Of a stretch of DNA of 64,000 nucleotides, positions 33,561-58,864 are shown piece after piece; position 1 is the stretch's first letter, and every line of letters starts with the position of its first letter. This stretch comes from Bacteroidota bacterium. Its GTDB lineage: Bacteria > Bacteroidota > Bacteroidia > AKYH767-A > OLB10. The notes beneath the pieces are model-generated. The model was given only the letters and a program-made list of their open reading frames with translations. It was not told where the DNA came from and did not search any database. Made by a program: the position numbers and the translations under genes. The stretch spans positions 453,840-517,839 of the forward strand of contig JADJOH010000008.1 in assembly GCA_016713925.1 (NCBI GenBank). Reading direction: 5' to 3'.

Positions 33561-33586
33561 GAAGTAAGATTTTTATTAATAAGGAA

Positions 33587-33890: not shown

Positions 33891-35156
33891 ATGAAGCAAT
33901 TCTACTCAATCACAAAGGAGAAATCGAAGTATTTCAAGTTGGTATTTCGTATTTTCATCTTAGTTTTTATTAGTTGCACGGGAGTTTTCGCCCAATCAAC
34001 AATAAATACTGCCATTGCTCCCATTACAAACAATAATGGTAGTGGTACTGTTACTTTTAATTTCCAAAATACTAATCCCTATGGTATAATAATTACCGAC
34101 ATTGAAGGGATTGTTGGAACTGCAGGGCTAACTTCTGCGGATTTATGGATTAAAACAACACCGGTAAGTGCAGCACCTGGAGCAATTTCTGTTGCTAATG
34201 GATGGACTTTGGCTGCTACCGGCACTTTTACAGGAGTTGCTAATACGACGACGCTTGTAACTCAGCCAATGTTAACAGGAATAAGTGTTGTTATTCCTGC
34301 AGGAGTTACCTATGGGTTTGCAATATCAGCATATAGCGGTACTGCCGGCCGGCAACGATATCATACCATATTAGTAACAGATCCGACTACCTTTTCAGCA
34401 GGCGGTTGTAATATTTTAATGGGAGCAAATATCAGTTATGCGGGTGGAGCACCACCCACAGCACCAACAAATACTCCCCGTGGATGGATGGGAAAGTTAA
34501 CCTTTATACCTCAAGCTCCTTGTGTTGACCCACCCACCCCCGGAACTGCAATAACAACTCCTTCAACGCAGATTTGCCCAAATTCAGCATTGACATTAGA
34601 TCTAACAGGTAACAGTGGTGGTTTAGGTCAGACCTATCAATGGCAAACAGGCCCGACTGCTTCAGGTCCATGGACCAATATAGGTTCCTCGTCCGGCGCT
34701 CCATCATTAATAATTAATCCAACAGCTTCAGCTTATTACCAGTGTCTGGTTACCTGTGGATTAACTACCCTTCCTTCTACTGCAGTCTTTAATGATGTTG
34801 CCACTTTGTTCCCTGGCGGAACATATACCATAAACAGTGCACTTCCTACGGGCGGCGGAAATTATGCGTCTTTTAATGATGCGGTTGCAGCCATTCAATG
34901 TGGTATTGCAGGTCCTGTAATTTTCAATTTTGCTCCGGGTAGCGGACCGTATGTTGAACAGGTCATTATACCTCAAATAGGTGGAACTTCAACGACGAAC
35001 ACAATTACCTTTAACGGAAATGGTGTCTCCATGATAGCTGCCAGTGCGAATACCAATCAACGAGAGGCCATACTTTTAAATGGAGCGGATCATATTACCA
35101 TTGATAGCATTCTCATTGATGTAAGTGGGGGTACCTATGGATGGGAATCCGGTTAA
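33891..35156 (+). CDS. Giant cell-surface protein B, N-terminal fragment (421 aa); continues in 35141..44476 after a -1G event in a G-run
   Basis: Signal peptide MKQFYSITKEKSKYFKLVFRIFILVFISCTGVFAQ. The end ...TITFNGNGVSMIAASANTNQREAILLNGADHITIDSILIDVSGGTYGW aligns with the internal repeat of B2 (TITFNGNLETLAFASANTNQRAVITLSGADHIYIDSLTIDASGGTYGYGVHLISQADSN). Reading continues in the +1 frame (GIRLTNSADSN) if tgggaatcc is read as tggggaatcc. Confidence 0.8.
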   Translation: MKQFYSITKEKSKYFKLVFRIFILVFISCTGVFAQSTINTAIAPITNNNGSGTVTFNFQNTNPYGIIITDIEGIVGTAGLTSADLWIKTTPVSAAPGAISVANGWTLAATGTFTGVANTTTLVTQPMLTGISVVIPAGVTYGFAISAYSGTAGRQRYHTILVTDPTTFSAGGCNILMGANISYAGGAPPTAPTNTPRGWMGKLTFIPQAPCVDPPTPGTAITTPSTQICPNSALTLDLTGNSGGLGQTYQWQTGPTASGPWTNIGSSSGAPSLIINPTASAYYQCLVTCGLTTLPSTAVFNDVATLFPGGTYTINSALPTGGGNYASFNDAVAAIQCGIAGPVIFNFAPGSGPYVEQVIIPQIGGTSTTNTITFNGNGVSMIAASANTNQREAILLNGADHITIDSILIDVSGGTYGWESG

Positions 35157-38100
35157 CCAACAGCGCTGACAGTAACGTTATTTCAAATTGTCAGATCAAT
35201 ACATTGGCCAATAGCACATCTTCCAACTATGCAGGAATTATTATGAGTGGTTCTGCAACTGCAGCCACTACTGCCGGAGACAATGGAGATGGAAACTTGT
35301 TTATCGGAAACACTATTATAAATGGATACTATGGATTTACTTTATGTGGCAACAGTACGGCTCCGTTTGCCGCAAACAACAGTATCATTAATAATGATAT
35401 CATAGATCATTATTTTTATGGGATCTATGTGGTGAACGCCGAGAACTCCATTATCAGTGGAAATAGTTTACATCATGATTCGCGTGCCACCACTACTACC
35501 ACCTATGGTGTTTATTTAACTACTAATTGTATAAGTACTCAGGTATCAGAAAACAGAATCTACAACTTCTTCCTGGGAAATGCCCTTTCTACTTCCACTA
35601 GCTATAGTATTTATGTGGCAGGAGATGGAACTTTGGGCACAGAAAATAAATTGTTTAATAATATTATTTATAGCATCCGTGGTAATGGAGCTCAATATGG
35701 AATTTATAATACTACCGGTGATTACATGCAGGCGTATCACAATACGATCTCTTTTGATGATGCAGCAGCTACTTTAGGTGCAAGTTATGGTATTTACCAG
35801 ACAGGTGCTGTTACAAGTGTTGATATCAGAAACAACATCATTTCAATTACGCGTGGTGGTACCGGAACCCGATACGGATTGGGTTTTGTGACTGCGGGTA
35901 CGTACATCACGAGCAACAATAACGATATTTATTTAAATTCAGGTGGAACGGATAGTATTGGTATTTATACAACACTTCCTTTTACCACATTGGCCAACTG
36001 GCAAACTGCCAACGGAGGCGCTTATGATGGATCCAGCGTAAGCTTAGATCCATTATTCGCAGATCCGGGTAATGGAGATTTTACTCCTGCAAATCCGGGT
36101 GTAAACTCAAATGGAGCGAATGTGGGTGTAGCTGCTGATATTTTAGGTAACCCGCGTACGTTAGCTGCTCCGGATCCGGGTGCCTATGAATGGACTCCCT
36201 TGGGTGCGGATGCCGGGATAACTTGGGTGTCGCCGTTGCCTCCGGTTGGTTTGGGTAATCAGACGATTACCGTCCAGATCACCAATGCACAAACTGCCAC
36301 CATTACCAGTCTTGATCTTGCGTATACGGATGGCGTGAGTACGGTTACAGAAACTTTCAGTTCATTAAATATTACAGCCGGTAATAATCAGCAATTTTCA
36401 TTCACCACTCCCTATAACTTAACGGGTAATGCGGATTTAAGAGCATACGTCAATTTGGTGAATGGTGCTATTGATGATAACCAGGCGAATGATACCACTG
36501 CGGTACAAAACTTTTGTCCTGCGCTGAATGGAGTATATTCCATTGATTCGGCTTTACCTACTTCAGGTACAAATTTCCAGACATTTACAGATGCCGTAAA
36601 TCAGATGATCTGCGGTGGCGTGGTGGGTCCGGTTACACTAAATGTTGTTGCCGGTTCAGGACCCTACAATGAACAAATATTGATTCCTGCCATAGTAGGT
36701 GCTTCAGCTACCAATACCATCACCTTTAATGGTAATTTGGAAACCCTCGCTTTTGCCAGCGCGAATACCAACCAGAGAGCTGTTATTACGTTAAGCGGAG
36801 CAGACCATATTTATATTGATAGTTTAACTATTGATGCTTCCGGTGGAACTTATGGTTATGGTGTTCATCTGATCTCTCAGGCGGATTCAAATAAAATCAC
36901 GAACTGCGTTGTAAATACAACAGCAAATCAGACCACCACTAATTTTGCCGGAATTGTGATGAGTGGATCTCTTGCTTCTGCAACTACAGCCGGTAATTCA
37001 GGAAACGGAAATGAAATCAGTGGCAATACCATTACAAACGGATATTACGGTATAACGGTTGTTGGTACTTCAGCCGCACCATTTATTAGTGGAAACCGTG
37101 TAGTGAATAATTCCATCACCGACCACTATTTATATGGTGTATATAGTCTGGGAAATACAGGTACTGAGTTTGTTGGAAATAATATCAGACAGTTGAATCG
37201 TACGTCCACATCTACTACTTATGGATTGTTTTTAACTACAAACACCATAGGTGCTAAAGTTGAACGAAACAGAATACATGACTTCTTAGTTGCAACACCA
37301 ACTTCCACTTCTACAGTTTACGGAATTTATGTAGCCGGAGATGCGTTGTTGGGCAGTGAAAATAAACTGGTGAATAATTTGATTCATACACTCGGAGGAA
37401 ATGGTGTTCAATATGGTATTTACAATACAGGTGGAAATCACATGTGGGCCTGGCATAACACGATTGCATTGGATGCTGCTGCTTCAACGCTGGGAACTAC
37501 CTATGGAATCTACCAAACCACAGTTGCAGATTCTCTTCAGTATTATAACAATAACATTTCAATTACGCGTGGAGGAACCGGAGCCAGATATGGAATATTC
37601 TTTAATACAGCCGGTACGTACATAAAAAGTAATTACAACAATATATATGTTAATACACCGGGGGCAGATAGCATTGGATCATATGCAGCAACAGCCTTTA
37701 CTACATTAGCCAATTGGCAAACGGCAAATTCATCTGCATACGATCAACAAAGTATAAATTTTGATCCCCAGTTTGTAGATCCGTCACTGGGCAACTATCA
37801 ACCTTCAGTTGTTGCTTTGAATAACGCAGGGACTCCACTTGGTGTTACTGAAGATATTAATGGTGCAGTTCGAAATTTAACAACTCCTGATATTGGGGCG
37901 TATGAATACCTTATAGCTACTGAGGATATAGGTGTGACGTTATTGATTACTCCTGCACCAATAGCAAGTGCCTGTTATACGGCCAATGAAACGATTACAC
38001 TTCGGATTAGAAATTATGGTTTAAATGCCATCGACTTCTCGTTAAATCCTGCTACTATCACTTGTAATGTGACCGGTGCCACAGTGGCTACTTTAACAGG

Positions 38101-41100
38101 TACTCCAAGCGGCATTTTACCTATCAATGGAACATTAGATGTTGTGATGTCCACTACATTGGATATGACTGCAATCGGTATTTATACTTTTAATGCAACC
38201 GTTTCAATGACCGGTGATGGTAATGCTGCAAACGATGCAATGACCCCAACAACAAGAACTACCGCAGCTTCTTTAGGTAGTATTAGTGCAGATGTAAGCA
38301 CTATTTGCGTAACAGGAGCTCCGACACTTACATTAACAGGAGCAATCGGAAATGTGCAATGGCAAGAATCATTAATAGGAAATACTGGGCCTTGGACAAA
38401 TGTAGGCACTAACAGCAATGTCTATACTCCTGGATCTTCTATTACGGATACCACCTGGTATCAGGCAGAAGTAACTTGTAATGCATTTTCCGGAACAACC
38501 AATGTGGTTCAGGTAGATTACCTGCTACCCCAAATTTTAAGCACAGTGAATGATTCCGTTTGTGGTCAGGGAAGTGTTACCCTTAGTGCTACAAGTACCG
38601 GTCAGGGAACTATTAACTGGTATGACGTGGCAACAGGCGGTACTGCGCTCGGAACAGGTAGCACCTTTACAACGAATATCACAGGAACTACAACTTTTTA
38701 TGCGGAAGAACAACTTTCCGGTGGTGGTGGAAGTGCTGCTGCCATTCAAATTACAGAAATAGATTTAGGCGCCAGTGATCAGTTGGAAATTCAAAATGTT
38801 TCACCCAATACTATTAATGTTACCGGTTGGAAAGTAGCTGTTAGCAATAGTTATACTGATATCACCTCCGTCAATACAATAGTTCAAACTTTGAGTGGCA
38901 GCATGACCCCCGGTCAAACGATGACCTGGACGGATGCCACTGCAGGTCCGAATTATTGGGGAAATAATTTATTCTGGAACCCCGGTGCATTTCCAAGTTT
39001 TTCAGGTTGGGCAGCCATACTTGATAACAATAATAATTTAGTGGATGTATTATTTATGAATTGGCCTTCAGCTAATATTCAATCAGCGAGTATTTCTATA
39101 CCAAGTGGTCCAACTATTACTATAGGCTCACAATGGAGTGGAGACGGAGTGAATATCTCAACTGTTGCAGCCACTCAAAGTGTGTCGCGTCAAGGTACTT
39201 CTGATAACAATGCAGCTACAGATTTCTCCATTATCAACTTATCAATTGGAAGTACTAATCCGGGAATGACGATTCCATTTACCGGTTTCGGCTGCTCAAG
39301 TACCCGTGTGGCTGCGTTGGGAGTGTCTACTTCTGCACCTGCCATTACAGTTACTCCCGGAAATGCGCTTTGTCCAGGTGATTCTATTGGCCTACAAGTA
39401 AGCAGCATTAATGATCCAAATTATGAATATACCTGGACATCAAATCCCGGTGGCTTTAACCAAAGTGGTAATGGTCCATTCTACGTGACACCATTAGTGA
39501 ATACTACTTATTATGTATCTGCTCTCGATACTTCTTCGGGAGGTACAGGAGGTTGTTTTATTACGGATAGTATAGTTGTTATTCCACTTGCATCTTTTAG
39601 TGCAGGTACAGTTTCTGCGACAGGACCTTATTGTATTACAGGGGAACCTACCATTTCAGTTGCAGGAGCATCCGGCTTTATTCAATGGCAGGAATCAACT
39701 GTAAGTGGAAACGGTCCGTGGACTAATGTCGGCATTTCCAATAGTAGTACTTATTTACCGGGAACCGTCACACAAACTACTTATTACAGAGTGATAGTGA
39801 GCTGTATTTCAACAACCGACTCTTCAAATGTAGACACGGTGTTTGTATACAATCCACAAGTATTGACGGCTAATGGAGATACTCGTTGTGGTCCGGGAAC
39901 TTTAAATCTTACCGCTACAACAGATCCGGGCTATAACTTAAATTGGTATGCAGATTCAACCGGTGGCGCTCTTTTAGGTACCGGAAGTCCGTTTACTACA
40001 CCACTGGTTCTACAAACGGATACCTTTTATGTGGAATCAAATTCCGGTACCGGCAGTTCGGATAGCCTTCAAGTACCACTGGCTTCCGGAGGTACAACAG
40101 GGGTTTATCATCATATGTTTACTGTGAGTTCGCCTAACGGAATGCAGATTAATAAAATTGGTATCAAATGCAATAATACCGTGGGTACACTCACTGCCTG
40201 GGATATCTATTACCGCCCGGATGATTTCAAATTGGTAGCCGGAGCGAATACATCCTCAGCCGGTTGGATTTTAGTCTCAACAGTTACAAATGTACCTTCT
40301 CAAGGCGCAACTGCTTATACAACCATTGCAACAGGAATTAGTATTGATATTCCTGCCGGTGCCACTTATTCCATCTATGTAGCTCCTGCTACCGGGGCGA
40401 CACACCAATATGGTACCAGTGTTGCCGGAACCGTGGTTGGAACGAATGCCGTAGGTTCGGTAATAGCCGGATACAGAGGCAGTGCTTTGTTTAATTGTAC
40501 TACCACTTCAGGATTCCCTGTGGTAAGTCTTGAATACAGCGTTGGCTGTCCTTCGACTCGTGTTCCGGTTATCGCAACTGTTACTCCATCTCCAGCCGTT
40601 CAAATTGCCGGGAATACTACAATTTGTCAGGGAGATTCAACAAACCTAACTGTTGTTGCAGGCCTACTCGATTATACAAATTTTAACTGGTTTCCCACAA
40701 CAGGTCTGAGTGATACCGCCGGTACAAGCATTTATGCTTTGCCTACGGTGACTACTAAATACTATCTGCTGGCTTCCGGTAACATTAATAATTGTCAGGC
40801 TGTCGACAGTATCACCATAATTGTAAATTCATTTAATTTAAATGTGAGTGTCAATAATCCAATAGTGTGTGGTGCATCTGATTCATCGCAGATTACAACA
40901 ACAGTAAGCGCAGGAACTTATACGTATTTATGGACTCCTTCAGCCGGTTTATCTGCAGATAACATACCTGATCCGAAAGCACGCCCAACCGGAGCCAGTG
41001 AAGTGTATACATTAGCGGTGACCGATTCCTTAACAGGTTGTACCAAGTATCAAAGTGTGACTATTTATAAATCATCGCCCGATGTTTTAACCACAGTAAC

Positions 41101-44100
41101 TGATACCGTTTGCGGAATAGATCAGGTGACACTAACGGCAACGGGTACCCCCGGAGGCGAAATTAGTTGGTGGTCTGCCGCAACCGGAGGAACACGGTTA
41201 GCCGTGGGGTCTCCATTTACTCCAACCATTGGAACAACAACAAACTTTTATGTTGAAGTGAGAGACACGATCACACAAACTCCTGTCAGTACCGGATTTA
41301 ATGGTGCTACAATAGCTACTGATCCGAACGCTGCGGGAAATATGTTTGATATAACGGCGATTAATAACGTGAGAATTTCAGGATTTGATGTGCATCTGAA
41401 TAATGATACATTGGCACCTTCTGATATTAGCGTCTATTATAAAGCAGGTTCGTATTCAGGTTTTGCCACAAATGCCGGTGCATGGACACTTGCAGGATCC
41501 GCAACGGGTGTTGTATCTGCGGGAAATGGAGTTCCAACAAATTTACCTATGAATCTTGACGTTTATATTCCCGCAGGACAAACCTATGGCTTCTATATTG
41601 TAGTGACTAATCTGGGTAGTTCTAATTCCCTTGTATATAACGCGAGTGGAATTTCTCCTGCGCAGTTCGCAGTGGCTGCATCAGATTTTAATGTACAGGT
41701 TAAATCGGGAACAGTTGTTTTCGGTCCGTTCACGGGTCAGGTAGCCGCTCCACTAAATCGTTTATGGAATGGAAATGTGAAATATTCCATCGGATGTATA
41801 AGTGCTAGAGATACAGTAGAAGCAGTATCGCTTACAGCTCCTTCTATTTCACTTACGACCTTACCCAACGATACCATTTGTGCCGGAAGTAGTGTGACGT
41901 TGCAAGCAAGTAGCGCAAATGATCCGAATTATTCCTACGTATGGAATCCGGGTGGACTACCCGGAGCATCGGTGTTAGTTTCGCCAACTGCAAAAACGAA
42001 ATACTATGTAACAGCTACAGATGTTTCCACAGGTGGTACAGCAGGTTGTATTACCGTAGATTCTGTCACAATTAACGTTAGTCCTTTGCCATTAATTGAT
42101 GCTACACCAACGTCTGTTAGTGTGTGTGGAGGTGGAACAGCCAACTTGAGTGTAACTAATCTCACTCCCGCTGAAACAACATTTGGAACACAGGCTAATC
42201 AAAATACTTCGACCACCTATCCGGCTCCTTATTCTGTTTATTATGGAGCACAAAGAATGCAAATGTTGATTACCGCGGCTGAACTTTCAGCTGCAGGTTA
42301 TAATGCGGGATCACCACTGGCGGGTATTAAATTTCCTGTAGTATCCTTAGGTCCAAATTGGGGAGTAAGTTTGACGTCATGTAATTCATTCCAAATGAGT
42401 ATCGGAAATACCGCCCTTACTACGTTAACTGCTTTTCAAACAGGTTTAACGCAAGTAATTGCCCCCGGAAATTTTACTCCGGCAGTTGGGTATGGTAATA
42501 CACATACATTTAATACTCCATTTGTTTGGAATGGGACTTCTAATATTATTATAGAAACTACTTTCGGAAATAATATTGCAGGAGTAGCGAATGATCATGT
42601 CATTCAATATAACACCGGAACGAGTTATCAAAGTACAATTGTGTATAGGGCAGATAATGTTACAGCCGCCGCTGCAGCAGTCGCCACTACGGTTAGTTTG
42701 TCGTTTAGTGCAAGACCTGATTTTAAATTTGTATCTAATACGGCTCTCACTTATCAGTGGAGTCCGGTTACAGGATTGAATAACCCTACTTCAGCAACTC
42801 CCGTATTAACTGTTCCTCCCGGTATGAATCAGTATTATTATGTTACTGCAACCAATCCATCTACAGGATGTACCGCTATGGATTCTATTTTGGTTTCAGC
42901 AATTTCTAATCCAAAACCAATCATCGCCGATAACGACACTACCTTGTGTAACCCTGATTTCATTTACGTGAATGTAGTGGATACCGGTCTTTATGTAGGT
43001 GGGTATCCTGCAGGTACTAACTTTACCTGGAGTGCTATCGGAGTTCCGATTCCTGATCTGGATTCTATCAGTTCAAGCAATGGTTCTTCTTACTCAGTTA
43101 TCGTAACGCTGCCCAGCGGATGTTCTGCAAGTTCCGATACCGCTATTATCCTGACCAAGTCAGTGGCAGTAGTAGATGTCATTACTCCTGCAAGCTGTAC
43201 CGGTGGTGGTTCTATTGCTGTTACCGTAACCAGCGGATTACCAAACTACAACTACATCTGGTCAACTGACCTTGCTCAAACCAATATCATCAGCAACGTA
43301 ACGAAGGCGAACAATCAGGATACATTAAGTAACCTGACCGCCGGTACTTATTACCTGCAGGTATATGACGAAGCGGGCACTCCTGCCTCATGTAACTCCG
43401 GAGTATTGACGTATGTTGTTTCGGGATCCTCTCCGATCGTGATCGATTCAGTAGTAGGTACAGATATTTCCTGTAATGGATTCGCTGATGGATCAGCCAC
43501 CGTTTACTGGACCGGAGGAACTACCCCATACAACATCTTGTGGAGCGATGGAAATACCAACGCTACGCGTGCAGTTACTGCCGCTGCCAGCTTAACGGTG
43601 ATTGTATCGGATAACTCCGGTTGTGCAGATACGTCATCCGTCACCATCAATGAGCCTGCATCAATTACCCTGACCCTTTCATCTACCAACGAAAGCGCCC
43701 CGGCTGCAAACGACGGTACAGCTTCAGTGGTAATAGCAGGTGGAACTCCCGGCTATATAATTGAATGGTACGATGCATTATTTACGCTGATTGGTAGCGG
43801 TACTCCAATTACAGGTCTTACAGGTGGAACGTATACCGCTGTGGTAACAGACACCAACGGTTGTCAAGGTTTTGATAACGTAGTGATCACGACTAACACC
43901 AACGCTATTCTTAACCTGACCATGCTGATTGAAGGTATGTATGATGGAACAGGCGGATTGGTGCCGGCCTTACTGAATTCAGGAGTAGGCGTTAGTCCGA
44001 CAGAATGTGATACGATCCGTGTAGAAATCCGTGATCAGTTGAATACGTTAACGGTTTTGGCTTCCGGAACAGCAGTACTTGGCACCAATGGCCAGGCGAG

Positions 44101-44476
44101 CTTTACTTTCCCGGCTGCCATTAATGGTGCAAACGGTTACATCGCGGTGTTCCATCGTAATGCAGTGCAGACATGGAGTGATTTACTCACCTTCTCTGCT
44201 ACAACCAACTACAACTTCACCACTGCGGCTACTCAGGCCTTCAGCTCCAATATGATTGAAGTGGATCCGGGTGTATTCGCCTTCTACAGTGGTGATATTT
44301 CTCCACAGGATGACGTGGTGGATATTACCGATCAGGGTTATGTAGGAAATGATATCTTGAACTTTGCTTCCGGCTATGTACCAACGGATGTATCGGGAGA
44401 TGGAGTAGTGGATATCACTGACCAGGCGATTGTAGATAATAACATCTTAAACTTCGTGGGATCGATTCTCCCATAA
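35141..44476 (+). CDS. Giant cell-surface protein B, main part (3111 aa): right-handed beta-helix (PbH1) repeats, Ig/PKD-like modules, LTD-like domain, SprB repeats, shared C-terminal dockerin-like module
   Basis: PbH1-like repeats (NNISITRGGTGARYGIFF...). There are many roughly 90-aa Ig-like modules ending in ...Y.V...D...GC. An LTD-like segment (IQITEIDLGASDQLEIQNVS) is present. SprB repeats occur near the C-terminus. The last 1572 nt (42905-44476) are about 95% identical to 56560-58132. Confidence 0.85.
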   Translation: MGIRLTNSADSNVISNCQINTLANSTSSNYAGIIMSGSATAATTAGDNGDGNLFIGNTIINGYYGFTLCGNSTAPFAANNSIINNDIIDHYFYGIYVVNAENSIISGNSLHHDSRATTTTTYGVYLTTNCISTQVSENRIYNFFLGNALSTSTSYSIYVAGDGTLGTENKLFNNIIYSIRGNGAQYGIYNTTGDYMQAYHNTISFDDAAATLGASYGIYQTGAVTSVDIRNNIISITRGGTGTRYGLGFVTAGTYITSNNNDIYLNSGGTDSIGIYTTLPFTTLANWQTANGGAYDGSSVSLDPLFADPGNGDFTPANPGVNSNGANVGVAADILGNPRTLAAPDPGAYEWTPLGADAGITWVSPLPPVGLGNQTITVQITNAQTATITSLDLAYTDGVSTVTETFSSLNITAGNNQQFSFTTPYNLTGNADLRAYVNLVNGAIDDNQANDTTAVQNFCPALNGVYSIDSALPTSGTNFQTFTDAVNQMICGGVVGPVTLNVVAGSGPYNEQILIPAIVGASATNTITFNGNLETLAFASANTNQRAVITLSGADHIYIDSLTIDASGGTYGYGVHLISQADSNKITNCVVNTTANQTTTNFAGIVMSGSLASATTAGNSGNGNEISGNTITNGYYGITVVGTSAAPFISGNRVVNNSITDHYLYGVYSLGNTGTEFVGNNIRQLNRTSTSTTYGLFLTTNTIGAKVERNRIHDFLVATPTSTSTVYGIYVAGDALLGSENKLVNNLIHTLGGNGVQYGIYNTGGNHMWAWHNTIALDAAASTLGTTYGIYQTTVADSLQYYNNNISITRGGTGARYGIFFNTAGTYIKSNYNNIYVNTPGADSIGSYAATAFTTLANWQTANSSAYDQQSINFDPQFVDPSLGNYQPSVVALNNAGTPLGVTEDINGAVRNLTTPDIGAYEYLIATEDIGVTLLITPAPIASACYTANETITLRIRNYGLNAIDFSLNPATITCNVTGATVATLTGTPSGILPINGTLDVVMSTTLDMTAIGIYTFNATVSMTGDGNAANDAMTPTTRTTAASLGSISADVSTICVTGAPTLTLTGAIGNVQWQESLIGNTGPWTNVGTNSNVYTPGSSITDTTWYQAEVTCNAFSGTTNVVQVDYLLPQILSTVNDSVCGQGSVTLSATSTGQGTINWYDVATGGTALGTGSTFTTNITGTTTFYAEEQLSGGGGSAAAIQITEIDLGASDQLEIQNVSPNTINVTGWKVAVSNSYTDITSVNTIVQTLSGSMTPGQTMTWTDATAGPNYWGNNLFWNPGAFPSFSGWAAILDNNNNLVDVLFMNWPSANIQSASISIPSGPTITIGSQWSGDGVNISTVAATQSVSRQGTSDNNAATDFSIINLSIGSTNPGMTIPFTGFGCSSTRVAALGVSTSAPAITVTPGNALCPGDSIGLQVSSINDPNYEYTWTSNPGGFNQSGNGPFYVTPLVNTTYYVSALDTSSGGTGGCFITDSIVVIPLASFSAGTVSATGPYCITGEPTISVAGASGFIQWQESTVSGNGPWTNVGISNSSTYLPGTVTQTTYYRVIVSCISTTDSSNVDTVFVYNPQVLTANGDTRCGPGTLNLTATTDPGYNLNWYADSTGGALLGTGSPFTTPLVLQTDTFYVESNSGTGSSDSLQVPLASGGTTGVYHHMFTVSSPNGMQINKIGIKCNNTVGTLTAWDIYYRPDDFKLVAGANTSSAGWILVSTVTNVPSQGATAYTTIATGISIDIPAGATYSIYVAPATGATHQYGTSVAGTVVGTNAVGSVIAGYRGSALFNCTTTSGFPVVSLEYSVGCPSTRVPVIATVTPSPAVQIAGNTTICQGDSTNLTVVAGLLDYTNFNWFPTTGLSDTAGTSIYALPTVTTKYYLLASGNINNCQAVDSITIIVNSFNLNVSVNNPIVCGASDSSQITTTVSAGTYTYLWTPSAGLSADNIPDPKARPTGASEVYTLAVTDSLTGCTKYQSVTIYKSSPDVLTTVTDTVCGIDQVTLTATGTPGGEISWWSAATGGTRLAVGSPFTPTIGTTTNFYVEVRDTITQTPVSTGFNGATIATDPNAAGNMFDITAINNVRISGFDVHLNNDTLAPSDISVYYKAGSYSGFATNAGAWTLAGSATGVVSAGNGVPTNLPMNLDVYIPAGQTYGFYIVVTNLGSSNSLVYNASGISPAQFAVAASDFNVQVKSGTVVFGPFTGQVAAPLNRLWNGNVKYSIGCISARDTVEAVSLTAPSISLTTLPNDTICAGSSVTLQASSANDPNYSYVWNPGGLPGASVLVSPTAKTKYYVTATDVSTGGTAGCITVDSVTINVSPLPLIDATPTSVSVCGGGTANLSVTNLTPAETTFGTQANQNTSTTYPAPYSVYYGAQRMQMLITAAELSAAGYNAGSPLAGIKFPVVSLGPNWGVSLTSCNSFQMSIGNTALTTLTAFQTGLTQVIAPGNFTPAVGYGNTHTFNTPFVWNGTSNIIIETTFGNNIAGVANDHVIQYNTGTSYQSTIVYRADNVTAAAAAVATTVSLSFSARPDFKFVSNTALTYQWSPVTGLNNPTSATPVLTVPPGMNQYYYVTATNPSTGCTAMDSILVSAISNPKPIIADNDTTLCNPDFIYVNVVDTGLYVGGYPAGTNFTWSAIGVPIPDLDSISSSNGSSYSVIVTLPSGCSASSDTAIILTKSVAVVDVITPASCTGGGSIAVTVTSGLPNYNYIWSTDLAQTNIISNVTKANNQDTLSNLTAGTYYLQVYDEAGTPASCNSGVLTYVVSGSSPIVIDSVVGTDISCNGFADGSATVYWTGGTTPYNILWSDGNTNATRAVTAAASLTVIVSDNSGCADTSSVTINEPASITLTLSSTNESAPAANDGTASVVIAGGTPGYIIEWYDALFTLIGSGTPITGLTGGTYTAVVTDTNGCQGFDNVVITTNTNAILNLTMLIEGMYDGTGGLVPALLNSGVGVSPTECDTIRVEIRDQLNTLTVLASGTAVLGTNGQASFTFPAAINGANGYIAVFHRNAVQTWSDLLTFSATTNYNFTTAATQAFSSNMIEVDPGVFAFYSGDISPQDDVVDITDQGYVGNDILNFASGYVPTDVSGDGVVDITDQAIVDNNILNFVGSILP

Positions 44477-44496
44477 GAAATAATTCATCTAATAAT

Positions 44497-44530
44497 AAAG
44501 GGCGATATCGTTTGATATCGCCCTTTATTA
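44497..44530. terminator. Bidirectional terminator between giant gene B and the response regulator gene
   Basis: aaagggcgatatc-gttt-gatatcgcccttt flanked by A/T runs. Confidence 0.7.
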
Positions 44531-44558
44531 TTATAACTATTGTATTAGTGACGGAGCA

Positions 44559-45197
44559 TTAAATAATTTTCTGTTCCAGTGCAACCGAAATTGCTTCTGT
44601 TGCAGAATGTACATGTAACTTCTCATATATTTTCTTGAAATGAGAGTTTACAGTATGCCAACTGATACCGCAAGCATCAGCAATCATTTTATAGCTGGAG
44701 CCTTTAACCAAATGAGATAATATCTCCAGTTCACGTGGCGTTAAATCAAAAGTGGAATTTTTAATTTTTGAATTCGTTTTATTTTGAAATACCTCCAATA
44801 CTTTCTTCGCTACGGATGGAGTCATAGGTGCACCACCTTCCATCACATCTCTTATCCCCTCAATTAATTTTAAAGGGGATGTTTTCTTTAAAAAATAACC
44901 ATGCGCGCCCGATTTAACTGCTTCAAAAATTTTATCTTCCTCTTCAAAAACGGTTTGCATGATGACCATCACGTCGGGCATAGATTTACGAATTAACTTT
45001 AATCCTCCTATACCATTTAAACCCGGCATATCGATGTCCATTAAGATTACATCAGGTAGCAATGCTTTGGCTTTTTCAATAATACCTTCGCAATTGACGA
45101 AAGTACCTACACACTTCATGTCATCATACTGATTGATTAATAATTCCAGGCTTTCCAGCCTTCCCTTATTATCATCAAAAACCATTACTTTAATCAT
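44559..45197 (-). CDS. Two-component response regulator, NarL/LuxR family (REC + HTH_LuxR)
   Basis: The receiver domain has the conserved Asp (VILMDIDMPGLNG). The C-terminal LuxR HTH reads LTPRELEILSHLVKGSSYKMIADACGIS..TV..H...IYEKL. Confidence 0.85.
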   Translation of the reverse strand: MIKVMVFDDNKGRLESLELLINQYDDMKCVGTFVNCEGIIEKAKALLPDVILMDIDMPGLNGIGGLKLIRKSMPDVMVIMQTVFEEEDKIFEAVKSGAHGYFLKKTSPLKLIEGIRDVMEGGAPMTPSVAKKVLEVFQNKTNSKIKNSTFDLTPRELEILSHLVKGSSYKMIADACGISWHTVNSHFKKIYEKLHVHSATEAISVALEQKII

Positions 45198-45267
45198 AAT
45201 TCAAATATAAGTAGTTCGATATAATTTATGTATCACTATTATTAGTCAGATATTGATAAATTCAGAA

Positions 45268-48200
45268 TTAAAGATCAAATACCAGTTTAACGCTCGTTCC
45301 TTTACCCGGCAAAGAGTCAATAGTCAGGACACCTTTTATTTCCATTGCTCTTTTTTTCATATTGACCAGCCCATTTCCTCTTGTATCTTCCAGTTTAAAG
45401 CCTCTTCCGTCATCTTTTATCATCAGGGTAATCATTTTATCGTTTTCATATAAATCAATCCAAACGGATTTGCATTGGGCGTATTTTAAAATATTGTTCA
45501 GACTTTCTTTAAAAATCAAATACAGGTTTTTACGCTGCTTCATATCAATCTTTACATTTTTCAATCGTTCATCAAGATTGAGGTGGAGGTGAATTGGGGT
45601 AGAACCAATGGTTTCCGCAGCGTGAGTCCGCATTTTAACGAGGATGTTTTCGAAGCGATCATTCTTACTGTCAATCATCCAAACAATATCGTTCATTGCT
45701 TCCTGTGAAATTTGCGTGTATTCACCGATTTTATCCAGCACAGGAATAACATCGTCTTTTTTTCTGCTGATACTTTCTTTAGCCACCTGATTAAAAATGG
45801 AAATAGAACTAAGGTTAGAGCCGATTTCATCGTGTAAATCTCTGGCGATATTCTCCCGGATGTTTAAGAGTTTTCGGTTTTGTCGGTTCTTATAGAGCAT
45901 CCAACTGTAAATCAAACCTGCCAACGTCAGCAATAGTAAAATATAAAAATAGTCGGATTTGTACCAGGGGGTACTTATGGTAAAAGGAATAGACAATTCC
46001 TGATCACTCCATTCTCCATGGGGATTAGAGCATTTTACTTTAAAAATGTATTCTCCCGGATCCAGATTTGAATAAGTAGTGAAACGTCGGGTACCACAAT
46101 TTATCCAGTTTTGATCCAGCCCTTCCAGCTTATAAGCATATTGAATCTCTTCATTCCTGAAAAAGTCGAGTGAGGAGAATTGAAAGGTGAGATTGTTTTC
46201 AGTGTATTGAAAATGAAAGCTGGAGTCCAAAGGCTGAATTTTATTGTTGCATAAAATTTTTGTAATTACAGGTGGAGGACTGAGTATATGCGCTGAAACG
46301 GTATCCGGATGAAAAATGACGAAGCCATTGATTCCACCAAAGGCAAGTCTTCCATCGGTCAGACTACAAGCTGCATTCGTATTGAATTCCTCAAAGAGCA
46401 GTCCGTCTTTATTGGAAAAAGTTAAAAAGGAATTATTTCCCGGAATGAATTTGCAAATTCCTTTATTGGTTCCCATCCAGAGATTACCTGTTGCATCCAT
46501 CAGCAGACTATAAACCGAATTGTCCGAAAGACCTTCTTCTTTTCTAAATTGCCTTATCGTTTTTTTAATAGGATTATAACTGAGTAAACCGTTTCCGTTC
46601 GTGCCAATCCAGATATTCTCTTTATCACGATAAATTATACTCCGAATATCTGATGAGAGAAGTGGCAGTTGATTGTTCAACGGCATAACTTCCATGGTGT
46701 TTTTATCAATGGTAAATATTCCCTTGGCTGTACCTAGTAATAACCTGCTATTTATATACCCGGTAATACAGAATATACTTGCTCCCTTCAGGTGTTCCTT
46801 GCCCTGTTTTAAGTCAAGGTTTTCAGGTGGAGGTATTTCCTCTCTTGAACGAAGGCGAAAAAGATGTCCGGACGAAAGCCCAAAGTAAATAGATGAATCT
46901 GCGTCCACATATGCGGAACGAAAGGTGAACCGATCATTTTGCAGGAGAGAATCATAAGAAACATGCAGTTTATATTCACTTTTTTTATAGTTCAATTGAT
47001 GGAGCAACGGCGTATTCCAACCGGTGATCCAAATGTTGTCGTTTTGATCCTTTATTATAGTGCTGTAAGGATTTTCGTTGAAAAGCACTTTGTTAGTTGT
47101 GGGGTGTATTATCCGCGTAAGGCTACTGTCAACTATATTAAATTGTCGAACTCCATCCAGTGAGGCAATGAAAAGTGAATTCTTCCCGGTTTCGCAAATG
47201 GAACGTATATTTCTGCTTAAAGAGTAATTGTTGGGATTCGCTTTTCCGTCTGTTACAAAAGAATTGAAGAGCGTTTTATTTCTTTCACATTTGACCAATC
47301 CTTTTCCCGCTGAAAAGAACCAGGTAATTTCATTGCTATAATCCAGAATTAAGTTACAGTCATTGGTTGGGTTTTGAGAATTACCTGTATGAAGATGGGA
47401 GAGCAACAACAGCGAGTCATTTGCAATGGCCATTTCAATTAATCCACCATTACTATTCTGCAACCAGAAATTATTATTTTTCCCTTTCACAAAACCACTG
47501 AATGTAAAATCCGCTCCAAATTCTTCCTTCAGTTTTATTAAAAGGGACGATTTGCCGGATTTGCCGGTCAACATATTGTGAAACTCAATTTCACCCTTCG
47601 GTGAAAGAAGGATCAGGTAATTGTTTATTAATTTTTCAAAATTGGGTTTTGATCTCAAAGGTGTTGTTTCTGAAGATCGGGGGAGGATTTCTTTGAAAGT
47701 TTGAAGTGTAGGTTCAAATACGAAAAGATGGGAAATACAACTTACATAGAGATCCTTATCCTTAATAAAGAAATAGTTTGGTTGAGCACACAATGAAATG
47801 CTCGCTTTCTTATTCAATCCGATAGGATCCAGTTTCTTGAATTGATTTGTTGTCAGGTCAAAACCGAAAAAGCCATTTCCTGTAGCAAAGAGCAATTGAT
47901 TATTGAAAATTTCAGCATTAACCGAAGAGGCCTCCGAAATAAGTGCCGGAAGTAGATATTTTGTAACAAGATTCTTTGAAAAGTTAACTTTATATAACAC
48001 CTCCTCCGCCAAAAAGAACGTAAACGGCCCATAGAAAGCGATTACTTTAACATCTTTTCCGGAAGAAATTGGGAGAATAGATTTGAAAGTTTCTGTCCTG
48101 TATGAGTAACTTGCAATTGCCCGGGAAGTAATAAAGAAGGTATTGCCTGATGCGTCACTATGACCGGAAATAACTGTTGAAGAAGGCAGACTTGAAGGAT

Positions 48201-48447
48201 CCGATGGGTTATTTCTATATTCTATAAATTCATTCCCATCAAATCGGCTCAATCCATTTTCAGAAAGCAACCACAAGAATCCTTTAGGATCATCCCATAA
48301 TCCGGTTATGGTACCTGCCGGAAGTCCTTCCTGTGTGGTATATGACTTAAAATATACCGTTTGCTGAGCAGAGAGGCTCCACAGATTTCCGATAAGGAGC
48401 CCCACGAAAACAAGGAACTTTTTTCCGGTAGAATTCAATTTTAACAA
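45268..48447 (-). CDS. Sensor histidine kinase with periplasmic two-component-regulator propeller + Y_Y_Y domains, one TM helix, HisKA_3 and HATPase_c
   Basis: 1059 aa. Signal peptide; repeated WIGT..GL..YN propeller blades; a TM segment (YFYILLLLTLAGLIYSWML); an H-box (ARDLHDEIGSNLSSI); a GNGL/GKGT ATPase lid. It lies upstream of, and co-oriented with, the LuxR-type regulator. Confidence 0.85.
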   Translation of the reverse strand: MLKLNSTGKKFLVFVGLLIGNLWSLSAQQTVYFKSYTTQEGLPAGTITGLWDDPKGFLWLLSENGLSRFDGNEFIEYRNNPSDPSSLPSSTVISGHSDASGNTFFITSRAIASYSYRTETFKSILPISSGKDVKVIAFYGPFTFFLAEEVLYKVNFSKNLVTKYLLPALISEASSVNAEIFNNQLLFATGNGFFGFDLTTNQFKKLDPIGLNKKASISLCAQPNYFFIKDKDLYVSCISHLFVFEPTLQTFKEILPRSSETTPLRSKPNFEKLINNYLILLSPKGEIEFHNMLTGKSGKSSLLIKLKEEFGADFTFSGFVKGKNNNFWLQNSNGGLIEMAIANDSLLLLSHLHTGNSQNPTNDCNLILDYSNEITWFFSAGKGLVKCERNKTLFNSFVTDGKANPNNYSLSRNIRSICETGKNSLFIASLDGVRQFNIVDSSLTRIIHPTTNKVLFNENPYSTIIKDQNDNIWITGWNTPLLHQLNYKKSEYKLHVSYDSLLQNDRFTFRSAYVDADSSIYFGLSSGHLFRLRSREEIPPPENLDLKQGKEHLKGASIFCITGYINSRLLLGTAKGIFTIDKNTMEVMPLNNQLPLLSSDIRSIIYRDKENIWIGTNGNGLLSYNPIKKTIRQFRKEEGLSDNSVYSLLMDATGNLWMGTNKGICKFIPGNNSFLTFSNKDGLLFEEFNTNAACSLTDGRLAFGGINGFVIFHPDTVSAHILSPPPVITKILCNNKIQPLDSSFHFQYTENNLTFQFSSLDFFRNEEIQYAYKLEGLDQNWINCGTRRFTTYSNLDPGEYIFKVKCSNPHGEWSDQELSIPFTISTPWYKSDYFYILLLLTLAGLIYSWMLYKNRQNRKLLNIRENIARDLHDEIGSNLSSISIFNQVAKESISRKKDDVIPVLDKIGEYTQISQEAMNDIVWMIDSKNDRFENILVKMRTHAAETIGSTPIHLHLNLDERLKNVKIDMKQRKNLYLIFKESLNNILKYAQCKSVWIDLYENDKMITLMIKDDGRGFKLEDTRGNGLVNMKKRAMEIKGVLTIDSLPGKGTSVKLVFDL

Positions 48448-48982: not shown

Positions 48983-51481
48983 ATGATCACACGTCGTGTA
49001 TTGATGAAAACAAATAACCAACATATGAAAACAATTACCAGTTCACCAGGTTTGAATAAAGTCAGACCTGTTTATTTTTTGCTACTCTTTACTCTCAGTT
49101 TCATGACTTGTTTTGAGTCGGTAGCACAAGTTGCTTACAATTGGACGTCAACAACAGGTGGTACTTATACACAATTATCCGGAGGAGGTATAACAGTGAT
49201 TAATGCCAATGCCGGATTGTCATCAGGTCTGTCTAATAGTCAGGATGACGGAGCAGCTCTTGTTACACTGCCCTTCACATTTACGTACATGGGTAATCCG
49301 TTCACTGAGGTTACTTTTTGTACGAATGGCTGGATAGGAATGGGTAATCAGATGACCATTTCCGCCAGTAATTCGAGAGTTGGTGGAAACTTATTTACTG
49401 CAACCGCTCCCGTTAATACAATTGGTGTATGGTTTAAAGATATGGGCGCCAATTTTCCTGCCACTCAGCCGGGAACAGGTCCGGGTAGTATGCGACATGG
49501 TTTAACCGGAACAGATATTTATACCTTTCAATGGGATCAGGCTGTCGGCAGCAGCTTCAGCATTACCACAGCTAACCTTATCAGATTTCAAGTTTCTATC
49601 CATGGACCTGCTTCAGCCACGCCCGGCCGGATTGAATTGTTATATGGAACAACTACCGGAACTATAACTGCCACAGGAGCAGCTATAGGAATAGAAAATG
49701 CAACCGGAGGAACCAATAATTATATCAATGCATTAAACGGATTACAGAACTCAACAACTACTTCATCCGCATGGCCGGGTAATGGAAACGGATGGCGTTT
49801 CGATCCGCAAGCTCCCTGTGTCATTCCTGCTGATCAACCCACCGCATTAACATTAACCCCTGTTTCTACCTCTCAAATTGACGGTTCATTTACTCCGGCA
49901 GGCAGTACGCCTAATGGGTATTTAGTAGTGCGTTATCCTAATGGTGCGGCAACTACAAATCCTGTAAATGGCACTACCTATATAGCCGGGCAATCTCTTG
50001 GTTTGGGTACCGTTGTTTCGTTTGGAGCAGCTACAAGTTTTAGCACTACAGGTCTTACCGGAAGTACCACCTTTGATTATTACGTTTACGCCTATAATAA
50101 TTTACTTTGTTCAGGAGCACCTGCCTACAATACGACGATTAACGCCGGACAAAATTCAGGATCAGCTTCAACAAATGCCTGCGGTGTAATTGCATCTCCA
50201 ATAACTGTCGGACCTACAGGAACCTATCCTACTTTAAGCGGACCGGGTGGCGCCATTGCCGCTATTGCTACAACAGGTATTTCATCTCCACTGGTTATAG
50301 AAATGCAAAGCACTTATACCGGAGCAGGAGAAACCTATCCGATAACGATGTCTTATGATGCATGCATCACTGCTACTAATAATGTGACTATTCGTCCGGA
50401 AGTGTCGGCCACTTCTGCCATTTTAATTACCAGTAATCATGCGACTTCCACCATTGATATGAATGGAGCCAGTTTTATTACTATCGATGGCCGCCCGGGC
50501 GGATCTGGAACCGATAAATTTTTAACGATAGAGAATACCGGTACCACCGGTCAGTCGGTATTATTGAGAAACGAATCTTCTAACAACACACTTACCTATC
50601 TGGATGTCCGCGCTGCGAATGCGAACGGAGCGAACAATACAACTACAGCGTTGGCAGGAAGTACCATTCCCGGAGCAATTGCTATTGGTACTACTACCGG
50701 AGCAAATGGAAACGATAATAACACCATTTCATTCTGTGATGTACACAGTATTACCTCCGGTGGAAACCTTGGTGTCTGTATCTATGCTTATAATTCAACC
50801 GCAGCAGGTACAGCTTCCAATAATGATAACAACAGTATTATCAATAATAATATTTATGATTTCTTCCTTGGTGCTTTGGCTTCAGCAGGTATCAATGTTA
50901 CTCCGGGTAATAATAATTATAGTATTGCTAACAACCGTATTTATCAGACATCTTCCCTGACTTATACCGGCACACAAACGGTTCGTGGTATGTGGATCTC
51001 ACCTAATACAGGATCTTTAACCTCGGCAAGCGGTTATGTGATTTCAAACAATAGTATTGGTTACAGTACTTCTGCGGGTACGGGCACTTATACAATGACC
51101 GGTACAACCGCGTGGTTGTTTAGTGGGATGGATTTATCCTTAGGAATTGGTACTGCTTCTTCTGTTCAAAATAACACAATTACCAATTTTAATGTGACAT
51201 CCGGTAATACCGGCTCCACTGCTTTTGTTGGAATTAACGTCGCCAATGGTGTAGTAGATATTGGAACAGTTACAGGGAATTTAATCGGATCAAACACTGT
51301 AAATGGTGCAATTACTTTTACTGCTACCGCTAATACCGGAGGAGTTCTTGGTATCAGAACAGGTGGTGGAAGTTTAATCAACATAGCCAACAACCAGATT
51401 TCAGGAGTAGATTTGCTTTCATCTGTACTTACCGTAACACCCATATTCAATGGTATTGCCGTTTCCGGGGTACAACAGTGA
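48983..51481 (+). CDS. Giant cell-surface protein C, fragment 1 of 3 (832 aa); likely real start at Met15 (MKTITSS..., about 49025)
   Basis: Signal peptide ...FLLLFTLSFMTCFESVAQ. N-terminal module with LPFTFTYMGNPFTEVTFCTNGWIGMG; beta-helix-like Asn-rich repeats. It ends at a G4 run; the reading continues in the -1 frame (51478..51936). Confidence 0.8.
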   Translation: MITRRVLMKTNNQHMKTITSSPGLNKVRPVYFLLLFTLSFMTCFESVAQVAYNWTSTTGGTYTQLSGGGITVINANAGLSSGLSNSQDDGAALVTLPFTFTYMGNPFTEVTFCTNGWIGMGNQMTISASNSRVGGNLFTATAPVNTIGVWFKDMGANFPATQPGTGPGSMRHGLTGTDIYTFQWDQAVGSSFSITTANLIRFQVSIHGPASATPGRIELLYGTTTGTITATGAAIGIENATGGTNNYINALNGLQNSTTTSSAWPGNGNGWRFDPQAPCVIPADQPTALTLTPVSTSQIDGSFTPAGSTPNGYLVVRYPNGAATTNPVNGTTYIAGQSLGLGTVVSFGAATSFSTTGLTGSTTFDYYVYAYNNLLCSGAPAYNTTINAGQNSGSASTNACGVIASPITVGPTGTYPTLSGPGGAIAAIATTGISSPLVIEMQSTYTGAGETYPITMSYDACITATNNVTIRPEVSATSAILITSNHATSTIDMNGASFITIDGRPGGSGTDKFLTIENTGTTGQSVLLRNESSNNTLTYLDVRAANANGANNTTTALAGSTIPGAIAIGTTTGANGNDNNTISFCDVHSITSGGNLGVCIYAYNSTAAGTASNNDNNSIINNNIYDFFLGALASAGINVTPGNNNYSIANNRIYQTSSLTYTGTQTVRGMWISPNTGSLTSASGYVISNNSIGYSTSAGTGTYTMTGTTAWLFSGMDLSLGIGTASSVQNNTITNFNVTSGNTGSTAFVGINVANGVVDIGTVTGNLIGSNTVNGAITFTATANTGGVLGIRTGGGSLINIANNQISGVDLLSSVLTVTPIFNGIAVSGVQQ

Positions 51482-51936
51482 ATGTGACAAATAATACTAT
51501 AGGTAGTTTAACGCTTGCCAATAGTATCAATGCCGTTTCCGCATCTACTTCTACATCGATTCAATCGATTCGAGGTATTACAGTGAATAGTGGCGCAACT
51601 GCCAGAGTTGTTACCGGTAATATCATTGCCAATATGAATACGAATATTGCAGCTGTCGGAACACAGGCAACATCTATGCAGGGTATTCAGGTGACTGCAG
51701 GTACCGTTACTGTTTCTAACAATACAATTACCAACCTCAGTTCAAGTACGCAAACTACTTCCGGAGGTAATACTTCTGCTATTGTGGGAATTGCCTATTC
51801 CTCTACAACAGCACCTGCAACGATCAGTGGTAATACCCTTCATACATTGCGATTAACGAGTCCTCTTGCAACGGGAGCAACAACTTGTCAGGCGATTACT
51901 TTTTACAGGACCTACGACAGGAACCAATGTTATTGA
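51478..51936 (+). CDS. Giant cell-surface protein C, fragment 2 of 3 (152 aa, GTG-start artefact)
   Basis: It continues the Asn/Thr-rich beta-helix repeats (NNTITNLSS...). Reading passes into 51866..58132 if the T5 run near 51905 is read as T4 (...CQAITFTGPTTGTNVIEKNNIHSL). Confidence 0.75.
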   Translation: MNVTNNTIGSLTLANSINAVSASTSTSIQSIRGITVNSGATARVVTGNIIANMNTNIAAVGTQATSMQGIQVTAGTVTVSNNTITNLSSSTQTTSGGNTSAIVGIAYSSTTAPATISGNTLHTLRLTSPLATGATTCQAITFYRTYDRNQCY

Positions 51937-58132: not shown

Positions 58133-58154
58133 GAAATATAATCTAAATTAAAAT

Positions 58155-58189
58155 AAGCGAGGTTACCAATAGGGTAGCCTCGCTTTTTC
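58155..58189 (+). terminator. Rho-independent terminator after giant gene C
   Basis: aagcgaggttacc-aat-agggtagcctcgctt followed by ttttt. Confidence 0.65.
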
Positions 58190-58219
58190 AATTTGATATA
58201 ATTTGAAATCTTAGTCAAA

Positions 58220-58405
58220 TTATTTCACAACAACAGGGCAGTTTCTGCGTGTAGAACAATTGGAAACGTTGCAACTGGTCAGCGAAGTGGGAGAGCCGCA
58301 GAAGTAGTCAGATTTTTTTCCTCCTACTCTTTGATGCATTTCAGATTCATTTAAGTTGGAGATGGTCATTTTGTTTAAGCTGAGTTTGTTGATTGTTTTT
58401 TTCAT
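58220..58405 (-). CDS. Candidate RiPP/bacteriocin precursor peptide with a Bacteroidota-type double-glycine leader and a Cys-rich core
   Basis: 61 aa. The leader reads MKKTINKLSLNKMTISNLNESEMHQRVGG; the core reads KKSDYFCGSPTSLTSCNVSNCSTRRNCPVVVK (4 Cys, Ser/Thr-rich). The leader pattern (MKK...KLSLNK..I..L...EM....GG) matches the GG-motif natural-product precursor families of Bacteroidota as I recall them. Confidence 0.6.
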   Translation of the reverse strand: MKKTINKLSLNKMTISNLNESEMHQRVGGKKSDYFCGSPTSLTSCNVSNCSTRRNCPVVVK

Positions 58406-58744: not shown

Positions 58745-58864
58745 AGAAATTGGAGCCTACATCATATCAGACTTTGTTGTCCCTGCCATTTTCGGAGGGA
58801 CTTTCGTTCCGTTTGATTGATTTGGCTCTAATTATCTATTTTTGTCATTCAAAATTATAGAAAG

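Follow-up and report, generated by a model that had tools for sequence, protein, structure and literature searches.

In Helicobacter pylori, the adhesin genes babA, babB and babC are paralogues at separate loci that combine divergent ligand-binding middles with very similar ends. Intragenomic recombination between these genes gives rise to strain-specific chimeras and to concerted evolution (PMC4552749). For the FLO adhesin genes of Saccharomyces, ectopic recombination among paralogous cell-surface genes is described as yielding chimeric alleles (PMC3512402). Among Bacteroidota, the SprB-type gliding adhesins of Flavobacterium johnsoniae, which are cargo of the type IX secretion system (T9SS), are giant repetitive surface proteins with SprB repeats and Ig_7 'CHU_C-associated' domains. 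In this study, we analyzed a stretch of 64,000 nucleotides (hereafter, the window) from an uncultured Bacteroidota bacterium of activated sludge (GenBank assembly GCA_016713925.1, contig JADJOH010000008.1, positions 453,840 to 517,839 of the forward strand). The window carries genes A, B and C, three tandem paralogues on the same strand coding for giant secreted surface proteins that differ in their N-terminal 'heads' and share their tails (Table 1). Altogether, our results make it very probable that the tails of A, B and C evolve in concert by gene conversion between the paralogues, and they suggest that the C-terminal module encoded there serves as an anchor.

The bab family is the nearest functional analogue of this locus. 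However, the Bab proteins are beta-barrel outer-membrane proteins of about 75 kDa from a host-adapted pathogen, and bab conversion also moves a phase-variable CT repeat, whereas A, B and C are tandem genes of 6-10.6 kb in an environmental Bacteroidota that share only their 3' ends and show no phase-variable repeat. Unlike A, B and C, which exchange a conserved and putatively anchoring end, the FLO genes are eukaryotic and subtelomeric and are described as recombining into new functional chimaeras. The likeness to the SprB-type T9SS cargo does not extend to the C-terminus, which in A, B and C fits neither T9SS sorting domain and is occupied by an uncatalogued module instead. Concerted evolution of paralogous surface-protein genes is a textbook process. 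Gene conversion at this locus is a well-known process in a new gene family, and our literature search turned up no account of gene conversion among SprB-type genes or of this tail module.

Self-BLAST of the window aligned the 3' ends of B and C over 1585 bp at 92.3% DNA identity (120 mismatches, one gap), with homology continuing about 15 bp beyond either stop codon. In a MAFFT alignment, 119 of the 1569 aligned bases differed, which corresponds to 92.4% identity; the 'mean column identity' of 96% given for the alignment is a statistic separate from pairwise DNA identity. The first 990 bp of this cassette code for three SprB repeats in B and C (Pfam, E 1.9e-15 for the B copy; about 330 aa), and the last 579 bp for a C-terminal module of 193 aa that is present in A, B and C. 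At the protein level, 495 of the 522 cassette residues are identical between B and C (95%). Thus, the near-identical 3' cassette reported in an earlier note made from the sequence alone (hereafter, the original prediction) is real and stands well above the 80% identity given there as its lower limit, and the nucleotide identity of about 95% claimed for it is in fact that of the protein. The left boundary of the B/C cassette, at 42905, is abrupt: in a codon-aware alignment of B and C, each 90-bp bin upstream of this position has 33-51% DNA identity and each bin downstream 84-99%. Gene A was rightly predicted to share only a tail of about 190 aa at lower identity. In the self-BLAST, its last 590 bp or so match B at 83.4% and C at 81.3%. 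Over the last 193 aa, 170 residues are identical between A and B and 167 between A and C, with synonymous divergence (dS) of 0.76-0.82; the A and B proteins align at 63% over 318 aa.

The tails and the heads of these genes have different histories. When we compared 579-bp tails from 20 loci of related metagenome-assembled genomes (MAGs; comparison loci carry L numbers), the tails grouped by genome. DNA identity within genomes was 81-93% for A, B and C of the window, 98% for L043/L045, 96% for L037/L039 and 89-94% for L044/L047/L049/L051, while no pair of tails from different species exceeded 86%. On the other hand, the head of B in the window (1249 aa upstream of the cassette) has 82% amino acid identity to L043, and gene A has 63% to L039 over 1500 aa and 65-74% to L051. 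These similarities indicate that the heads are orthologous across species and that the paralogues are older than the species split. Since the tails nonetheless group by genome, their similarity must have been renewed after speciation. The cassettes recur as well. The long form was found at 94.8% identity over 1639 bp in L043/L045 and at 91.9% over 1580 bp in L044/L049, with nothing alignable upstream, and a short form of 572-640 bp at 90-97% in five other pairs. The left edge of the long cassette lies 1562-1570 bp before the stop codon in three species, a recurrence that is expected if conversion tracts cannot pass the end of homology.

Evidence of exchange also comes from nearly identical strains. 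Using exact-protein look-ups of neighboring genes, we collected the A, B and C loci of about a dozen assemblies; all strain comparisons rest on metagenome consensus contigs. The Joint Genome Institute metagenomes concerned are from biological-nutrient-removal pilot plants and were mostly sequenced on PacBio Sequel IIe with 3 kb or 6-10 kb libraries and assembled with metaFlye, with racon for polishing (PMC10949500). The unique flanks of these loci are 99.4-100% identical to the window, although differences of 1-9% separate the tails. Six assemblies have one and the same B tail. The C tail is a mosaic. The clearest case is contig Ga0558116_01011 (101.7 kb), which carries A, B and C and from which both L001 (C) and L007 (the B copy) were taken. 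Over 473 bp (window 57606-58074), C of L001 has no mismatch to B of the same contig across 34 sites diagnostic for B or C, while on either side it is C-type, with 84 mismatches to B over the remaining 1103 bp. For this tract, a Sawyer-type run test with permuted sites gave p=0.0005. We rely only on the L001/B result of this test, which we rechecked with the B/C diagnostic sites, as its use on the full set of polymorphic sites gives inflated results with most allele pairs: many such sites in alignment columns 1161-1229 owe their existence solely to an A-type tract in L005. This second tract, of about 517 bp (window 57577-58093) in the C gene of L005, differs from an A allele by 13 substitutions and six indel columns in 522. 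The A tail of L020 is C-type in its last third. Hence, exchange is evident in three directions, B to C, A to C and C to A, in tracts of roughly 200-520 bp. In addition, the B copy of the window differs from the common B allele at 29 sites; the window state is found in one or another C allele at 22 of these sites and the alternative state at 19. No product of a crossover between the B and C cassettes, which would be a 13.6-kb deletion, was present in any assembly examined.

An 18-nt patch within the cassette (alignment columns 1138-1155) illustrates this exchange. It holds 13 mismatches between B and C and encodes NTLTVL in B and A and TPGNIL in C; homologues elsewhere have TPANVL or SPTTVL, which resemble the C version. 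All C alleles carry the C version except C_L001 and C_L005, those with the B- or A-derived tracts, and the L001 tract includes the patch. The patch travels as a block along with the conversion tracts. What had been described as a short local rearrangement does therefore exist, but as an equal-length run of substitutions.

From these data we infer that non-reciprocal homologous recombination between the paralogues would repeatedly overwrite parts of the tail in tracts of a few hundred bp. A tract could not run leftwards past the end of homology, which would produce the sharp, recurrent boundary. The original prediction had named gene conversion or recombination between paralogues and had pointed to related strains and long-read assemblies as the place to look. 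Orthologous heads with genome-matched tails, cassettes recurring at 92-98% identity and tracts in all three directions between near-identical strains all support it. Its qualification as recent applies to the strain-level tracts and not to the B/C pair of the window.

Several points weigh against gene conversion as the explanation. The mosaics are read from consensus contigs, and where strains are mixed, a racon consensus could smear out some parts of a mosaic or introduce them; the six indel columns within the L005 tract bespeak a low-quality consensus there. For some variants within the first 300 bp of the cassette, none of the copies compared can be the donor, so that further paralogues or imports from other strains must contribute. 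Moreover, with a dS of 0.26, the B/C pair of the window is not freshly homogenized. Its mismatches are only marginally clustered (variance/mean of 1.63 per 60 bp), and its longest identical run is 101 bp against 67 expected (p=0.03).

Import of divergent alleles of the same gene from other sludge lineages could also produce mosaics. Such between-strain exchange is suggested by the heads, where most of the variation at the locus lies. Between the window and L001, patches of the C head (49116-49616 and 51366-55100) reach a synonymous difference (pS) of 0.37 at most, with a ratio of nonsynonymous to synonymous differences (pN/pS) of about 0.1, beside stretches free of differences (55283-56633 and the flanks are identical). 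They have no paralogous donor in the window and look like imports of divergent alleles. Likewise, the segment 33620-40557 of the window, which comprises the A-B intergenic region and the first 6.7 kb or so of B, is not alignable with the B loci of the PacBio assemblies, although its flanks are 88-99% identical; a whole adhesin head (33891-40557) appears to have been replaced between strains. In the tails, however, the donors are identifiable as paralogues: the L001 tract equals B of the same contig and the L005 tract is A-type. As the sole source of the mosaic tails, between-strain exchange is thus unlikely, and allelic import seems to act at this locus beside conversion between paralogues, not instead of it. 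It is tempting to speculate that the constant tail may serve as one homology anchor for head replacement.

Taken alone, the B/C pair of the window would also fit a plain segmental duplication, in which the cassette was copied once and then diverged without ongoing exchange. The excess of synonymous differences is uniform and mismatch clustering is marginal, as such a history would leave them. We nevertheless regard it as improbable. The paralogues predate speciation, and yet tail identity is 89-98% inside each of four genomes, against at most 86% between genomes; in addition, strains with flanks 99.4-100% identical differ by whole tracts that match another paralogue exactly. Whatever its age, the cassette is under purifying selection. 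Between B and C, nonsynonymous divergence (dN) is 0.029 and dN/dS is 0.11, 86 of the 119 differences fall at third codon positions, and pN/pS between the C genes of the window and L001 is 0.11 over the whole 9.15 kb.

A third alternative is a programmed system, as in pilE/pilS or vlsE, in which silent or partial copies are recombined into an expressed gene. The original prediction had likewise considered cassette-type variation of surface-exposed ends. A partial 3' copy indeed lies downstream of C, and the C tail is the most strain-variable of the three. This orphan end was correctly recognized as a diverged remnant of the final 43 codons, and its bounds are corrected here from 58613-58744 to 58609-58750. 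Its DNA identity in the self-BLAST is 85.2% to the end of C, 83.8% to B and 81.5% to A, and the nearest end after these is one of another species (79%). It has no usable start codon, and in-frame stops lie just upstream. In each C-locus assembly that extends over the orphan, its BLAST match is the same (83.8% over 136 bp to the end of B in the window), so that it looks invariant, with no sign of use as a donor. The only partial copy is this single 142-bp stretch, 15% diverged from C; the donors that can be identified, A and B, are full-length genes. The exchanged segment has no sign of diversifying selection (dN/dS 0.11), the swapped tracts alter few residues, the segment is predicted to fold as an anchoring-type module and not as a variable tip exposed at the surface, and family scans of the window open reading frames (ORFs) found no recombinase or invertase encoded in the 64 kb. 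Consequently, programmed variation of the ends is very improbable. Just as improbable is an assembly artefact, be it a collapsed or duplicated repeat or chimeric contigs that switch B and C: the window does contain homopolymer frameshifts typical of error-prone long-read assemblies and the comparison contigs are metagenome consensus sequences, but 119 sites distinguish the two copies, each of which lies between unique flanks, and both were found in at least eight independent assemblies, and the clearest tract comes from the L001/L007/L017 contig of metagenome 3300056623, which is recorded as a 6-10 kb PacBio library (PMC10949500) and was assembled with metaFlye, and whose reads exceed the 1.6-kb repeat and span the cassette. 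The B/C repeat is therefore not an assembly duplication, the other possibility that had been raised against it.

As to the origin of the orphan, we infer that it is the stump of an older giant-gene 3' end. It would have been displaced when a segment with the present tail, the terminator and a small peptide gene recombined in upstream of it. We considered whether it could be a decayed copy of the small dockerin-only genes described below and rejected this, given that it ends in ...NFVGSIHP*, is 81-85% identical to the ends of A, B and C and is devoid of the extension that the small genes have at their C-terminal end. L003, in which positions 9810-9830 correspond to window 58130 to 58682, is the single structural variant at the orphan. 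The 551 bp that it lacks (58131-58681) begin at the stop codon of C, take in the terminator and the peptide gene and reach into the orphan, whose first half is missing. We rejected homologous recombination of the C end with the orphan as the cause of this variant, as the junction is out of register (CATCCAT joined to TACTGATCAGG), the stop codon is lost and LLIRRF* is added. L003 is thus either an illegitimate deletion or a local assembly error; it is no sign of excision mediated by the repeat and does not inform the origin of the orphan, which counts against drawing on it for the scheme above. The peptide gene is conserved in about 20 contigs and belongs to the 476 bp that separate the orphan from the stop codon of C. 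Its 61-aa product has a core rich in Cys, Ser and Thr, and TIGR04149 is a family of Bacteroidota GG-motif precursors of ribosomally synthesized and post-translationally modified peptides. No modification enzyme for it is recognizable in the window.

The 193-aa module itself matches no Pfam or NCBIfam family above threshold. Neither a T9SS type A sorting domain (TIGR04183) nor a type B domain is present at the C-terminus, and no NCBIfam family matches the last 193 aa; the NCBIfam scan returned only weak, internal, sub-cutoff matches to TIGR04183 and none to TIGR04131, the type B domain family. An AlphaFold2 model built from 19 homologues (mean predicted local distance difference test score, 89) consists of a beta-sandwich (residues 4-130) followed by two helices (144-155 and 174-185). 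In a Foldseek search of the PDB, the top matches of this model were X-module/type II dockerin structures (4FL4, 4U3S_B, 3KCP and 2B59_B; E 5e-6 to 4e-5, TM-score up to 0.68). Thus, at the level of predicted fold, the module has its closest structural counterpart in the X-module and type II dockerin of CipA, the Clostridium thermocellum scaffoldin (PDB 2B59, 3KCP, 4FL4, 4U3S). Both would combine a beta-sandwich and two helices with duplicated D-x-S/N-G-D-G-x-V-D-x-x-D loops, for which the module has two calcium-loop-like segments, DISPQDDVVDITD and DVSGDGVVDITD, and both stand at the extreme C-terminus of a very large extracellular protein. Unlike CipA, the module occurs in Bacteroidota and not in Firmicutes, has no link to cellulases and shares only 12-17% sequence identity. 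Two findings count against a dockerin assignment. Dockerin_1 (PF00404) scores 16.2 bits on the module (E 0.012), under the cutoff of 22.9; and no cohesin family matched among the window ORFs scanned with Pfam and NCBIfam, nor was a cohesin-like partner identified. A few of the homologues do have precomputed PF00404 matches.

A profile search of 1.84 billion cluster representatives retrieved 12,462 with the module at E<=1e-3 and 3,369 at E<=1e-30. The match reaches the last residue in nearly all of the 150 matches listed, in proteins of 215-4586 aa. Genomes with the module belong to Bacteroidia, Flavobacteriales, Chitinophagaceae and Ignavibacteria and often have many copies. Because it is always C-terminal on secreted giants and its predicted fold is like that of an X-module and dockerin, the module is most simply seen as an anchoring or sorting module. 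It would dock the protein to a common cell-surface or secretion partner, and such docking would explain both purifying selection and homogenization at this end.

Two further observations touch on a possible partner. In six loci of six MAGs, a small separate gene follows the terminator hairpin of the giant gene and codes for a protein of 100-128 aa with a signal peptide and the dockerin-like half only. Such small secreted proteins could be competitors or adaptors for the same partner; there is no such gene in the window. In addition, a protein of 1165 aa (window 22315-25812) is encoded near gene A in all assemblies. It matches no Pfam or NCBIfam family, and its last residues, ...RAYF, are typical of the ends of outer-membrane beta-barrels. 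We regard it as a candidate partner of the giant proteins.

Regarding the gene models, the calls for B and C in the original prediction were truncated, and their starts are corrected to 33891 and 48983, respectively. The first ORF of gene B codes for 421 aa with a signal peptide, and in the related assemblies L008 and L009 gene B is a single ORF of at least 3331 aa. Gene C also starts with a signal peptide; compared with the intact 3049-aa allele of L001 (PacBio), it differs by exactly two 1-nt indels, at 51466 (G5 to G4) and at 51900 (T4 to T5), which compensate each other. Hence, the frameshifts in B and C are probably homopolymer errors of a long-read MAG and not a sign of pseudogenization. 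SprB (PF13573) scores are 243.8 bits for A (E 6e-74), 33.5 for B and 42.8 for C, against a Pfam cutoff of 28. Further Pfam matches include Ig_7 in B and C and, in B, a beta-helix region and LTD. An exact-protein look-up of gene A had no match on record; the cystathionine gamma-synthase of the window is identical to MBK7888793.1, an NCBI protein of a 'Bacteroidetes bacterium' MAG.

B and C are each followed by a similar two-component pair, made up of a Reg_prop/Y_Y_Y/HisKA_3 histidine kinase and a LuxR-type response regulator. The window also contains three tandem arrays and an inverted pair of 77-bp sequences that may be a small intergenic repeat element.

Table 1. Features of the window and of the comparison loci. 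Positions refer to the window unless a locus is named; nt, nucleotides.
Feature	Position	Strand	Remarks
Gene A	27783-33560	+	Intact, 1925 aa; signal peptide, SprB repeats, LTD domain, C-terminal module; N-terminus MSRSQKYVLMLLLLFTGLLSSSTIFAQ
A tail	32978-33567	+	About 590 bp encoding the 193-aa module; short cassette common to B and C
Gene B	33891-44476	+	Signal-peptide ORF 33891-35156 and ORF 35141-44476; the frameshift between them is close to a G5 run (about 35126-35150)
Gene C	48983-58132	+	ORFs 48983-51481, 51478-51936 and 51866-58132; 1-nt indels at 51466 and 51900
B cassette copy	42908-44492	+	SprB part 42908-43894, C-terminal module 43895-44473, then stop codon and about 15 bp; self-BLAST, alignments
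C cassette copy	56564-58146	+	Most strain-variable copy; recipient of B- and A-derived tracts
18-nt multi-substitution patch	44041-44058 (B); 57697-57714 (C)	+	Alignment
Inverted repeat after B	44490-44533		Self-BLAST
Terminator-like hairpin and T-run	58155-58189	+	After gene C; AAGCGAGGTTACC...GGTAGCCTCGCTTTTT
61-aa peptide gene, class I lanthipeptide-type leader	58220-58405	-	NF038153 35.4 bits (cutoff 22); TIGR04149 29.6 bits (cutoff 25)
Orphan giant-gene 3' end	58609-58750	+	142 bp: last 43 codons, stop codon, 6 bp; ends ...NFVGSIHP* like the giant genes
Two-component genes after B	44559-48447	-
Two-component genes after C	60530-63595	+	Regulator beyond the window end, seen in L001
Tandem array, 160-bp unit	16670-17319		4.1 copies, 91% matches; units start with a doubled 16-mer AGACCTCGCGGGTGTT; intergenic, after a LysM/SLT transglycosylase gene
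Tandem array, 25-bp unit	60024-60235		8.5 copies, 93% matches; lies between the genes for cystathionine gamma-synthase and histidine kinase
Tandem array, 10/20-bp unit	8040-8229		About 19 copies; just upstream of minus-strand ORF 8228-9016
77-bp inverted pair	6208-6283 and 25838-25912		87% identity, 19.6 kb apart; second copy just after the 1165-aa gene
Small dockerin-only genes	L042 10638-10940; L044 10632-11012; L048 10649-11026; L073 3942-4325; L085 10666-11022; L066 616-948

The locus described here is a clean natural example of concerted evolution, with orthologous heads, genome-matched tails and tracts that segregate among near-identical strains in long-read metagenomes. It also has consequences for annotation, as cassettes and homopolymer frameshifts fragment such genes in MAGs; the calls split B and C into two or three ORFs apiece. 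As a tentative proposal, to which we give a minor chance, the tail may be an unrecognized and widespread surface anchor of Bacteroidota, either cohesin-dockerin-like or of a third T9SS type. Concerted evolution might then match all giant adhesins to one partner, and the cassette might act as a recombination handle for head swaps between paralogues and strains. The tail is a large uncatalogued C-terminal module that stands in place of the known T9SS sorting domains on SprB-type giants, and it offers an annotation handle for thousands of 'hypothetical' giant proteins. Should the module prove to be an anchor, it would represent a mode of cell-surface attachment undescribed in this phylum.

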